A stretch of DNA of 64,000 bases from Spirochaetia bacterium (GTDB lineage: Bacteria > Spirochaetota > Spirochaetia > SP-2023). Within the stretch, counting starts at the first letter, position 1, and the number at the start of each line of letters is the position of its first letter. The stretch is from NCBI GenBank assembly GCA_965225855.1, contig CBDDCK010000005.1, forward strand, positions 1,600,001-1,664,000, read 5' to 3'. A program made the position numbers and the translations under genes. The notes beneath the pieces are model-generated. The model worked only from the letters and a program-made list of their open reading frames with translations. It did not search any database and was not told the origin of the DNA. Shown piece after piece: positions 7,759 to 42,624 of this stretch.

Positions 7759-7853
7759 AATAGAATTGACCCAAATCTATCCATAGAATTACCTCCCACC
7801 TATTGATAGAATCGACCTAAATCTATTGATAGATTTACCTCCCACCTATTAAT
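7759..7853 (+). repeat. 46-bp (2x23-bp) tandem repeat, 2 units, upstream of lipoprotein copy 1
   Basis: tagaattgacccaaatctatcca / tagaattacctcccacctattga alternation; same family at 28553-28732 and 40021-40142. Confidence 0.85.
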
Positions 7854-8111
7854 ACCCTAGTCTTTAATGAACTTTTCTACATCGGCAATACGCAGTTTGC
7901 CGGATAGTGTAATCAAGTATTTTATTCAATTCTACACTTTCCCACTCCAAAGCAACAAACCCAAAACAATGTATGGCCAAAATTGTTTGCGTGAAGAGCC
8001 CCAGCTAAATACCCAGAAGCCCATATAGCCCAAGCTAAAGTACCCTAACACAAAAAAAGTGCCCAAACATAAAAAAAGCACAAAAAAACTTACAAAAAGC
8101 TTATATAGGCC

Positions 8112-8200
8112 TTGACGCAACACCCCCCTAGCAAAATAGGGATTTACACACTAGCCCGTATGGGTTGGCCAATCTTTATCCATTGTTGGAGGTATTGCTT
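8112..8200 (+). promoter_or_regulatory. Putative promoter/leader of lipoprotein copy 1 (TTGACG-caaca-C6-tag-CAAAAT, small hairpin, GGAGG RBS)
   Basis: Conserved upstream of all five paralogues; GGAGG lies 8 nt before ATG 8201. Confidence 0.55.
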
Positions 8201-40396: not shown

Positions 40397-40619
40397 CAAC
40401 ACCCTCAAGCCTTTTGATTGGCATGGATTTTTAACTACCTTACAACACTAATGACCTAACAAAAACACAAAAAAAGTACCCCAAACATAAAAAAAGCACA
40501 AAAAAACTTATAAAAAGCTTGTATAGGCCTTGACGCAACACCCCCCCTAGCAAAATGGGGATTTACACACTAGCCCGTATGGGTTGGCTAATCTTTATCC
40601 ATTGTTGGAGGTATTGCTT

Positions 40620-42419
40620 ATGTATAAGCACAAACTATTTTTATTGCCTGTAGCCTGGCTACTGGCCTTTATGGCCTTGGCCTGCGCCCCACCCGATGAC
40701 GATGCGCCGTCTTCTGGGCCGACTATCAATAACGCCATCTACGATGTTGGCATGGCTCTGTTAACCGTACAAGGTAATCACTTAAGTCCTACAGAAGCGC
40801 AAATCCAAACCATCAAAGTATATGGCGTAGTCTTAAATTCCTATACTGCAGATGACGATGCCACTGGGCTAAATAGTAACGGTCTTGAACAAGGTAAGTA
40901 CCGTATTAAAGGCGATGGCACAGCCATTTGGCTGAAACTTACCGACAAGCATAAAGCTACTCTTGAGGCCAAGGTGGATAGCAATGGTCTAAAAAAAGGG
41001 TTGCTTACTAGCTCTGGTGCTTGGGCGGGTTTAGATACACCTAAAGACTTGGACGTTATGAATGTACCCGATAAGCAGTCTAAAGTATCCGATGACAATC
41101 AGCCATCTAAGCAAACTGAAGAAGCTGAAGAAGCTGAACAAGTCGAACAAGCTGAAGAGGAGTCGCGTAAACTACCCGAAGCCGAAGAATCCGAAGAGGA
41201 GTCGCCTAAGCAACCTAAAGACGAACAAGTCGAACAGCAGTCGCCTGAACTACCCGAAGCCGAACAAACCGAACAAGTCGAAGATCAGCAGTCTAAGACC
41301 GAAACCGAAGAAGCTGCAATTACCCGTGCAACCTACCATGTCGGCACGGCGCTGTTAACTTTACAAGGTACTCACTTAGCTAGTGCGACCCAAGCCCAAA
41401 TCCAAACCATCACGGTAGATGGGATAGCTTTAGATTCCTATACTGCAGATGGCACAGCCACTGGGCCAGATAGTCGCAGTCTTGCAAAAGGTAAGTACCG
41501 TATTAAAGGCGATGGCACAGCGATTTGGCTTTACCTTACCGATCAACATAAAGCTACTCTAAATGGCAAGCCCGGTATGGATAGCAATGGTCTAAAAGAT
41601 GGGTTGCTTAGCGTTGGCACTGGTACTTGGGCAGGTTTAGATACAGCCAAAGCCTTAGCCGTTAGTGGACACCCACCCGCAATTACCAGTGCAACCTACA
41701 ATGCTAATACAGGCGTGTTAGTGATTACAGGTACTAATTTACCAAAAGCAGTTGCAGGCTGGGACTTTAGCAAATTGAGGTTTAGAATAAGTTATAGTTT
41801 ACACAGCTACACATTACCCCAGCACGCAACCACAGGTGCAAACAGAGCCGAAGGTTCTGCAGCAAGTGCAACAAGCTTAACGATTACTTTAAGCGGTAGG
41901 GTAAAAGCGCAAGCGGAAGCCGAGGATATGTTGTCTAGGAATGGTCTTACAGGAATTACTGGTGGTGCATACAACCTGGAAGCAGCAGCAGGCTTTGCAG
42001 GTGGTAGGGCAGCAGACACAAGCAATAACCCTATTACCGTTAGTGGCTACGCAAGCCAGATCAGCAGAGTAGACTACTATGCTGATAGAGGCGAGTTACG
42101 GCTTTATGGTGATAATTTACCGTCAACAGTTGCAGACTGGGACTTTAGCAAATTGGCGCTTGTATCCGGTGATGGTAGTAAGAGATACACATTACCCCGG
42201 CACGCAACTGCAGGTGAAAACACAGCAACAGGCAAAGTTGTATTAAAAACCGTCTTCTTCATTACTTTAAGCGGTAGTGTAAAAGCGGAAGCCAATAAGA
42301 TACTGGTTAAGAATGGTGAAAGTGATGATGCTGGTGCATACAACCTGGAAGCAGCAGCAGGATTTATAATGGGTAGTCCAGCAGACACAACCACTAGTAT
42401 TTTGGTTAGTGGTTGGTAA
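40620..42419 (+). CDS. Modular surface lipoprotein, paralogue 5 (A + linker + A + 2 B)
   Basis: Same leader, lipobox and domains as the other copies. Confidence 0.85.
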   Translation: MYKHKLFLLPVAWLLAFMALACAPPDDDAPSSGPTINNAIYDVGMALLTVQGNHLSPTEAQIQTIKVYGVVLNSYTADDDATGLNSNGLEQGKYRIKGDGTAIWLKLTDKHKATLEAKVDSNGLKKGLLTSSGAWAGLDTPKDLDVMNVPDKQSKVSDDNQPSKQTEEAEEAEQVEQAEEESRKLPEAEESEEESPKQPKDEQVEQQSPELPEAEQTEQVEDQQSKTETEEAAITRATYHVGTALLTLQGTHLASATQAQIQTITVDGIALDSYTADGTATGPDSRSLAKGKYRIKGDGTAIWLYLTDQHKATLNGKPGMDSNGLKDGLLSVGTGTWAGLDTAKALAVSGHPPAITSATYNANTGVLVITGTNLPKAVAGWDFSKLRFRISYSLHSYTLPQHATTGANRAEGSAASATSLTITLSGRVKAQAEAEDMLSRNGLTGITGGAYNLEAAAGFAGGRAADTSNNPITVSGYASQISRVDYYADRGELRLYGDNLPSTVADWDFSKLALVSGDGSKRYTLPRHATAGENTATGKVVLKTVFFITLSGSVKAEANKILVKNGESDDAGAYNLEAAAGFIMGSPADTTTSILVSGW

Positions 42420-42624
42420 GTAGGGTTTGGTTGTTGCAACTCTTGCATTGGCCTATTGCAGCCTTGGTAAGTTTTTTTATCAAGGCTGCAATAGGCCAAT
42501 TATAGCCTGGGTATGGAGAAAATAGCAAGTCTAGAAAAACTTTATTAAGGCTACAAACTTTTTTTAGTAATAGCTTTGCACAAACCCCTTACAATAATTA
42601 TTACCAGAACGTTGGCATAAAAAT

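Follow-up and report, generated by a model that had tools for sequence, protein, structure and literature searches.

Five lipoprotein genes among housekeeping genes

A 64,000-nucleotide (nt) stretch of a Spirochaetia bacterium genome (the window; positions 1,600,001 to 1,664,000 of contig CBDDCK010000005.1, hereafter C5) carries five intact lipoprotein genes, each set between flanking arms in a cassette. The cassettes, c1 to c5, lie in the order +,-,+,-,+ and are separated by housekeeping genes. The original prediction described this arrangement correctly. It read the array as the product of local transposition steps that inverted the DNA between copies, and it likened the result to a dispersed shufflon. 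We find that the five genes belong to a family with 112 copies, that three of them have Mu-like ends and that their order resembles a random one.

Cassette c1 (7708..11059, +) contains an open reading frame (ORF) at 8165-10954 (+). This frame spans 929 amino acids (aa) from TTG 8165, with the likely ATG at 8201 and the stop at 10954. Four 357-nt modules lie inside the gene, and no Mu-type ends are present. Cassette c2 (13665..16622, -) has an ORF at 13844-15841, with the gene at 13844-15805 from the likely ATG. It carries a Mu-type left (L) end, with its outermost base at 16622 and the outside flank ATTAGG, and no right (R) end; its downstream arm is a terminator-type module. Cassette c3 (20029..23409, +; ORF 20859-22994, gene 20895-22994) is the only complete Mu-ended unit in the window. 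Its L end begins at 20029 (TGAAAGAGGAC..) and its R end finishes at 23409 (..CCTGCATCA). Cassette c4 (26052..28733, -; ORF 26331-28154, gene 26331-28118) has a Mu-type R end, with its outermost base at 26052 and the outside flank GTTAAT, and no L end. Cassette c5 (39848..42904, +; ORF 40584-42419, gene 40620-42419) has neither Mu-type end.

The genes between the cassettes have the identities named earlier, as judged by Pfam and NCBIfam scans. The first unique segment (11060..13664, -) holds fliS (11079-11495) and dnaB (11611-13227). The second (16623..20028, -) holds a GH38 alpha-mannosidase gene (16631-19927) and is bounded by two L termini. The third (23410..26051, +), bounded by two R termini, holds gpmI (23500-25152) and a 199-aa ORF. 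A longer unique block (28734..39847, +) contains a 310-aa ORF, a leuA-like gene, tsaD, lolC/D/E-like ATP-binding cassette (ABC) genes and genes for an M23 peptidase, a bactofilin and a DUF327 protein.

A large family of genes with promoter-like sites

The family has 112 N-terminal matches in the 2.71-Mb, five-contig genome, and 88 of these are on C5. In all but five copies (107/112) the frame stays open over 398 aa or more. Together, some 110 intact family genes, each with a promoter of its own by sequence, account for ~8% of the 2.7-Mb genome. A genome coverage scan found a common core present ~108 times, which begins ~150 nt before the TTG and ends with the stop codon; the outer arms beyond the core are common to 10-35 copies. 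A database search with c5 gave 94 matches, comprising 86 proteins of the same genome, 6 ENA metagenome contigs and 2 remote sequences. With the c5 query the family was not found in three genomes of the same genus (G001-G003), and a GpmI search of the metagenome contigs found no close strain (best identity 61%).

The proteins share a common plan. At the N-terminus, c1 to c5 have the sequence ..MYK(L/H)KL(F/L)LLP..(F)MALAC-APPDDD, a lipoprotein signal peptide with a lipobox cysteine. This is followed by one to five copies of a ~119-aa module (AIT.A.Y.VGTALLT.QG..), then by an acidic KQTEDEQAEQ-type linker and two or three copies of a second, ~125-aa module (..WDFSKL..YNLEAAAGF..). Pfam and NCBIfam hold no model for the family, and the lipoproteins gave only sub-threshold or stray matches. 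An AlphaFold2 model of c4, made from a 29-paralog alignment, has a mean predicted local distance difference test (pLDDT) score of 71, with the C-terminal modules at 80-95. Foldseek matched this model to tandem immunoglobulin (Ig)-domain arrays (titin, Dscam) at E values down to 5e-10, and Ig-like leads from the ESM Atlas reached only 0.80-0.86. On the strength of the model, the family proteins are predicted to be tandem Ig-like lipoproteins built from ~120-aa beta-sandwich modules.

No single expression site serves the five genes. Each has its own promoter-like site, TTGACG..poly-C..TAGCAAAAT, followed by a GGAGG ribosome-binding site, an ATG and the signal peptide. In c1 the site is at 8112..8137 (+) and reads TTGACG-CAACA-C6-TAGCAAAAT. 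The same site with C7 occurs in c2 (15869-15895, -), c3 (20805-20831, +), c4 (28182-28208, -) and c5 (40530-40556, +). Genome-wide the motif was found in 91 of the 107 copies, with a C-tract of C7 in 73, C6 in 17 and C8 in 1; the other 16 had no match. Its sequence suggests that the site functions as a promoter. The family combines a homopolymer between the -35 and -10 elements, a lipobox and variation in coding repeat number, and changes in poly-C length by slippage are predicted to turn individual copies on or off.

Alternation of orientation is at chance level

The original prediction treated the strict alternation as a special pattern. Along C5, orientation changes in 47 of 87 neighbour pairs, where 10,000 shuffles give 43.8±4.6 (P of at least the observed value, 0.28). 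The longest alternating run on the contig is 7 and includes the five window cassettes. Because 96% of shuffles reach a run of at least 5, and 50% reach 7, the +,-,+,-,+ order is no more than chance. Such a pattern is ordinary for a family of this size; it is the family itself that is unusual.

All eight neighbour pairs that lie 1.4-5.1 kb apart are inverted, three of them in the window, at a distance limit that was set post hoc, after the data had been seen; below 6 kb the count is 10/16. The eight close pairs fit either short-range inverting transposition or deletion of close direct repeats.

The arms of adjacent cassettes resemble one another where they face inward, as had been claimed, and this holds for all four neighbour pairs. 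Downstream of c1 and c2, 105 nt are 93% identical, including a CCAACCAAG..CTTGGTTGG hairpin. The upstream arms of c2 and c3 (781 and 830 nt) are 87.8% identical, and ~277 nt of the downstream arms of c3 and c4 are 94% identical. For c4 and c5, 28323-28675 and 40018-40370 are 97% complementary. To ask how often like arms meet across the genome, modules were typed by markers; single-linkage clustering was dropped, as it put 67 upstream arms into a single cluster and 86 downstream arms into another. Pairs with like modules face to face show no genome-wide enrichment (7 against 4.1 expected, P about 0.10), although three of the seven are in the window.

Several arms carry short repeats. Arrays of a 46-bp repeat lie upstream of c1 (7749-7854), c4 (28551-28730) and c5 (40018-40142). 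The unit consists of two 23-bp halves (ATAGAATT..TATTG), and the motif occurs upstream of 25 of the 107 family copies. These arrays look like iterons. Directly downstream of c5 (42625-42840) lie 9.4 copies of a 23-bp unit (TAAGAGATTCTCTTAATACCTAA) with 94% identity, and related sequence is found downstream of ~15-25 other copies. Two small ORFs in the left arms of c2 and c3 (16020-16421 and 20318-20689) had no family match in Pfam or NCBIfam and are probably not genes.

Mu-type ends and a resident prophage

The L terminus reads 5'-TGAAAGAGGACATGATAAC.. and the R terminus ..GTTATCACGTCCTGCATCA-3', so that a complete unit has TG..CA ends. Both termini carry repeated GAC(A/G)(T/C)GATAAC motifs. 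The genome contains 31 L ends and 30 R ends. These form 16 cognate L-R pairs, 2.3-3.7 kb apart, and 16/107 copies have both ends. A perfect 6-bp target duplication flanks 5 of the 16 complete cassettes. Phage B3 makes duplications of 6 bp, according to the part of its description that was available (PMC8705779). Cassette c3 has no target duplication; its flanks, CTTAAT and GCTTGG, agree at 1/6 positions.

A Mu-like prophage is present at C5:1.269-1.294 Mb. It encodes a CI-like repressor, a 589-aa rve transposase, an AAA_22 ATPase, a Mu-like_Pro protein and tail proteins. Over 73 nt, its right end shares 92% identity with the R end of the cassettes. A search for PF09299, the Mu transposase C-terminal domain, found no match in this genome nor in any control genome and is uninformative. 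The family appears to be partly mobilised as natural mini-Mu units, and the TG..CA ends that bound part of it match the right end of the resident Mu-like prophage. The prophage transposase would have moved the cassettes in trans. The earlier premise of replicative transposition is upheld to this extent, by Mu-like ends, by 6-bp duplications in 5/16 cassettes and by a prophage with the same right end; the chain of local steps that was built on it is not.

The heptamer GCTTAAT lies directly before an L end at three otherwise unrelated sites (C5:1620022-1620028, C5:1592758-1592764 and C1:5956-5962). This recurrence before three separate L ends suggests a target preference.

Two larger stretches also have Mu-type ends at their borders. 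The hexamer ATTAGG outside the c2 L end (16623-16628) is identical to the one outside the R end (C5:1590132-1590137) of a same-strand element, C5:1590138-1592757. A 26.5-kb stretch (c2, dnaB, fliS, c1 and uvrB) is therefore bracketed by an L end, an R end and matching 6-bp ATTAGG. This could be a giant composite unit or chance, given 3 exact non-cognate matches in 914 pairs and 0-2 in controls. We considered whether the c2 left flank and the right flank of the C5:1590138 element had once been contiguous, and rejected this; tblastx found no such sequence beside the G003 mannosidase gene. The genes that flank these two ends are 58 kb apart in G003. The second stretch, 14 kb long (C5:1027022-1041147), runs from a left-end variant to a right end with the flanks CTTTGC/GTTTGC (5/6) and has a family gene at each end.

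Neighbouring cassettes are not closest relatives

One explanation of the array is that a single Mu-ended cassette was copied repeatedly nearby by intramolecular replicative transposition, with inversion of the DNA between copies. The family does have ends of the Mu type, which belong to replicative elements. Two L ends face the mannosidase gene and two R ends face gpmI, at junctions confirmed by unitigs, so that two of the four pairs have the right geometry, and the 8/8 inverted close pairs agree with such an origin. The same signature is documented for IS26 and Tn4401 in the available portion of PMC4471558. That source, within the same limits, describes the outcome of intramolecular replicative transposition in trans: a segment is inverted, a copy lies on each side of it in opposite orientation, and the flank repeats are exchanged between these two copies.

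Swapped flanks could be sought in two pairs, c2/c3 and c3/c4, as c1/c2 and c4/c5 lack the transposon ends that are needed. The TTAAT hint in the original prediction was accurate, with CTTAAT outside the c3 left end and GTTAAT outside the c4 right end. These agree at 5/6 positions. For c2 and c3 the left flank ATTAGG and the right flank GCTTGG agree at only 3/6. Matches of 5/6 are also common in the background, where 24/914 non-cognate flank pairs reach this level against 2-8 in offset controls, and GCTTAAT recurs before three L ends.

The arms themselves also argue against local copying. The 830-nt left arm of c3 is 99.76% identical to C5:158561-159390, which is 1.46 Mb distant, compared with 87.8% to c2. 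The c4 right arm best matches C5:1722378 at 98.2%, compared with 94.2% to c3. The upstream arms of c4 and c5 find their best matches at C5:2006482 and C5:741609, respectively. Neighbours are not each other's closest relatives, since their arms are 88-94% identical and those of distant copies 98-99.8%. In addition, transposon ends are missing from c1 and c5 and number only one each in c2 and c4, and like Mu ends face each other in only 2 of the 8 close inverted pairs. The outer neighbours of the segments are not the ancestral ones either (see below). We consider it unlikely that local copying built the array.

Gene bodies share tracts with distant copies

The gene bodies are mosaic in structure. 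When they are scanned in 200-nt sliding windows, the closest match passes from one copy to another every 100-800 nt, and identical tracts between copies reach ~800 nt. Examples at 100% identity are c5 41348-42047 with C5:204k, c3 21629-21929 with C5:146k and c2 14665-14865 with C5:1933k. Of 146 sliding windows, 5 had a neighbouring cassette as best donor. Gene conversion or ectopic recombination across the whole genome gives such a pattern; exchange between adjacent copies does not. The original prediction that crossovers occur within the genes is borne out in that the copies do recombine, leaving mosaics with 100% tracts; the partners it proposed, the adjacent copies, are seldom the best donors.

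Neighbouring inverted copies are 79-85% identical overall and share exact matches of 71-139 nt. Because of these inverted matches, general recombination between neighbours could in principle flip the segments between them. A more elaborate form of this idea is that the inverted copies are a programmed, reversible inversion system that reshuffles 5' and 3' gene halves, that is, a dispersed shufflon. The exact inverted matches and the mosaic copies agree with such a system, and Ureaplasma has invertible lipoprotein loci (PMC3047005, in the part available). However, Pfam and NCBIfam scans found no site-specific recombinase gene among the window ORFs. Genome-wide there are two tyrosine recombinases (PF00589; C5:383726 and C1:134691) and no serine recombinase (PF00239). 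The donors of identical tracts are spread over the genome rather than adjacent. Inversion is not needed for expression, since a promoter-like site, a ribosome-binding site and a signal peptide come with every copy; it would also turn around dnaB, gpmI or the lol genes each time. We regard a programmed shufflon as extremely improbable.

Unitigs confirm the segment borders

Repeats of this kind can mislead an assembler, and the unique segments might have been mis-joined through near-identical cassettes. Four short-read runs hold the region, X1-X3 from one sample and X4 from another, and all were available as Logan unitigs only. The X1-X3 unitigs reach just 23-56 nt into each cassette flank and give no independent confirmation of which flanks are paired across a cassette, and the copies share identical tracts of up to ~800 nt. 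The listed unitig joints are cross-matches to other family copies. Against a mis-assembly, unitigs confirm the junctions between segments and cassettes with 0 differences (11031-13721, 16598-20051 and 23382-26077). Neighbouring cassettes also differ enough, at 79-85% identity, for long reads to place them, and the 2.03-Mb contig extends across 88 copies. An assembly artefact is, in our view, very unlikely.

In the X4 sample, a contig that is 97-99% identical elsewhere diverges at 13452, 212 nt before the c2 flank, and continues for >255 nt with sequence that was not found in the genome. Two 30-nt loose ends from X4 (at 13452 and 19436) had no match in the genome even when up to 4 mismatches were allowed. 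The divergence beside c2 hints at a strain-level structural difference.

Cassettes lie at breaks in gene order

We compared gene order with that of the nearest congener, G003, a single contig of 2.41 Mb onto which 1024 reciprocal best hits were mapped as anchors. This genome is distant, with DnaB at 77-83% aa identity. Where no cassette lies between anchors, 533/925 adjacencies are kept in G003. For gaps comparable to the cassette sites but without a cassette, the fraction is 49/207 (24%) at 0.3-3 kb and 15/110 (14%) at 1-5 kb. With a cassette between the anchors, 0/94 adjacencies are kept, and 0/58 where the residual gap is <3 kb. All five window cassettes are at G003 adjacency breaks.

In all three congeners, uvrB, dnaB, the mannosidase gene, gpmI and the leuA block are hundreds of kb apart. 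The fliS-dnaB adjacency is kept in G002 and G003 with different outer neighbours, and genes 29962-37332 are collinear in both. G002 and G003 share three adjacencies: [orthologs of C5:1311178-1312855]-dnaB-fliS, [C5:415887-417701]-gpmI-[C5:419207] and [C5:684353]-leuA block. Because both genomes share these ancestral adjacencies, three of the window breaks are specific to the studied lineage. An inversion in place would have retained the ancestral outer neighbours, which are not retained here, and this opposes transposition with inversion in place. The small segments look relocated rather than flipped. In the comparison with relatives, gene order is broken at every testable cassette, which agrees with part of the earlier premise; the inversion of segments where they stand is not supported.

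GC skew per segment, another measure that had been suggested, was uninformative. The standard deviation of GC3 skew per gene (0.15-0.18) compares with replichore means of 0.03-0.08; dnaB and the mannosidase gene both have the local sign of GC3 skew. At the scale of the contig, cumulative GC skew on C5 goes up over 0-1.1 Mb, down over 1.1-1.5 Mb and up again to 2.03 Mb. Gene-strand bias is nearly nil, with 131 + and 121 - genes over 1.5-2.03 Mb. Skew and strand pattern fit a heavily rearranged chromosome. In G003, about 12 gene blocks that are neighbours at C1:2209603-2245261 are scattered in the studied genome. Six of these adjoin family cassettes, including four left-end junctions (C5:1387897, C5:159390, c2 and c3).

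Two other features of the window stand outside the array. A gene for a D12-class (Dam-like) N6-adenine DNA methyltransferase (3765-4649, -) lies alone between an ABC sugar-transport operon and uvrB. On the other side, 49356-59042 (-) holds six tandem paralogues of ~500-520 aa with 60-80% DNA identity. These gave weak subtilisin-type matches (mycosin and dentilisin PrtP models), well under the cut-off.

Origin of the array

On balance we lean, with modest confidence, towards an origin of the array in separate events. Transposition and ectopic recombination, acting on members of a large family whose orientations fit a random series, likely placed c1 to c5 in the window and likely broke the ancestral gene order as well. 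Gene conversion from distant copies would then be the main route of diversification. Close neighbours in direct orientation would be lost by deletion, and dense clusters would end up alternating.

Several observations weigh against this account. The association with breakpoints alone leaves causation by the cassettes unproven. Three tightly anchored insertions that keep their duplications (C5 45577, 800480 and 1722378) also lie at non-conserved adjacencies, so at least some cassettes entered pre-existing junctions. The breaks cannot be dated because G003 is too distant. No cassette was found within 8-12 kb of the partner sides of the three ancestral adjacencies. At the ends of the elements, 11 of the 16 complete cassettes have no target duplication, so many cassettes are not simple insertions, and the left end of the prophage was not found with the cassette L sequence as query. 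Finally, like modules meet face to face in three successive pairs of the window (L/L, R/R and 46-bp-repeat arms). A rough product of module frequencies puts the chance of such a chain at ~1e-4 for the chain as named and ~0.01 genome-wide, post hoc. Facing like modules are the geometry of intramolecular replicative transposition, and the 5/6 agreement between CTTAAT and GTTAAT is what local copying with inversion predicts.

A stronger role for transposition would accommodate some of these points. Mu-type replicative transposition of cassettes might be the main engine of genome scrambling in the studied lineage, with each hop adding a surface gene and inverting or relocating a segment. This would explain why each cassette is at a break and why most lack a target duplication. 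If it were true, the L/L and R/R termini that face single housekeeping genes in the window would be a preserved chain of events. We think it conceivable but improbable, and retain separate transposition and recombination events as the preferred account.

The question of cause has consequences beyond this locus. If the cassettes caused the breaks, they would offer a clear example from nature of a bacterial chromosome remodelled by an antigen family together with a transposable phage. If not, the implication would be that such cassettes insert only where block borders already exist. Both outcomes are relevant to how large repertoires of surface proteins arise and are maintained.

Comparison with known systems

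Borrelia vls/vmp, Treponema pallidum tprK and Neisseria opa are gene-conversion families. The family described here resembles them in its mosaics, with identical tracts shared between dispersed copies. It differs in having no single expression site that silent partial cassettes supply; the promoter-like motif is retained in at least 91 copies. T. pallidum tpr and Mycoplasma hyorhinis vlp are surface-protein families switched by homopolymer tracts. They share with the present family a homopolymer in the promoter spacer, variable coding repeat number and lipoprotein products. Here, however, the tract is short (6-8 C) and the number of family members is roughly tenfold higher.

Mycoplasma vsa/vsp and the R64 shufflon are invertible systems with short specific sites and a dedicated recombinase. 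Ureaplasma mba/UU172, so far as the available part of PMC3047005 describes it, is similar to the window in having inverted paralogous surface-lipoprotein genes that can form chimeric genes. It too uses short specific sites and a dedicated recombinase, usually with one expression site, whereas here no recombinase was found among the window ORFs and each copy has a full promoter-like site. Unlike invertible loci of the Ureaplasma type, the array also has housekeeping genes between its copies.

The inversions made by IS26 and Tn4401 are alike in their inverted copies, in the like ends that face a segment and in many unmatched flanks, on the evidence of the accessible text of PMC4471558. In those elements matched inverted flank repeats are diagnostic, by the same partial source; here the best match is 5/6 and the copies are not twins.

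Further parallels are found among small Mu-type units. Engineered mini-Mu and mini-D3112, mobile insertion cassettes and B3-type phages, as covered in the part of PMC8705779 at hand, have the same TG..CA termini, repeated binding sites and absence of an internal transposase. The cassettes differ from mini-Mu and mini-D3112 in being natural and in carrying one surface-lipoprotein gene each; both ends are present in 16/107, and most complete copies have no duplication. With B3-type phages, within the same portion of that source, they share the 6-bp target duplication, and a resident transposable prophage shares one of their ends.

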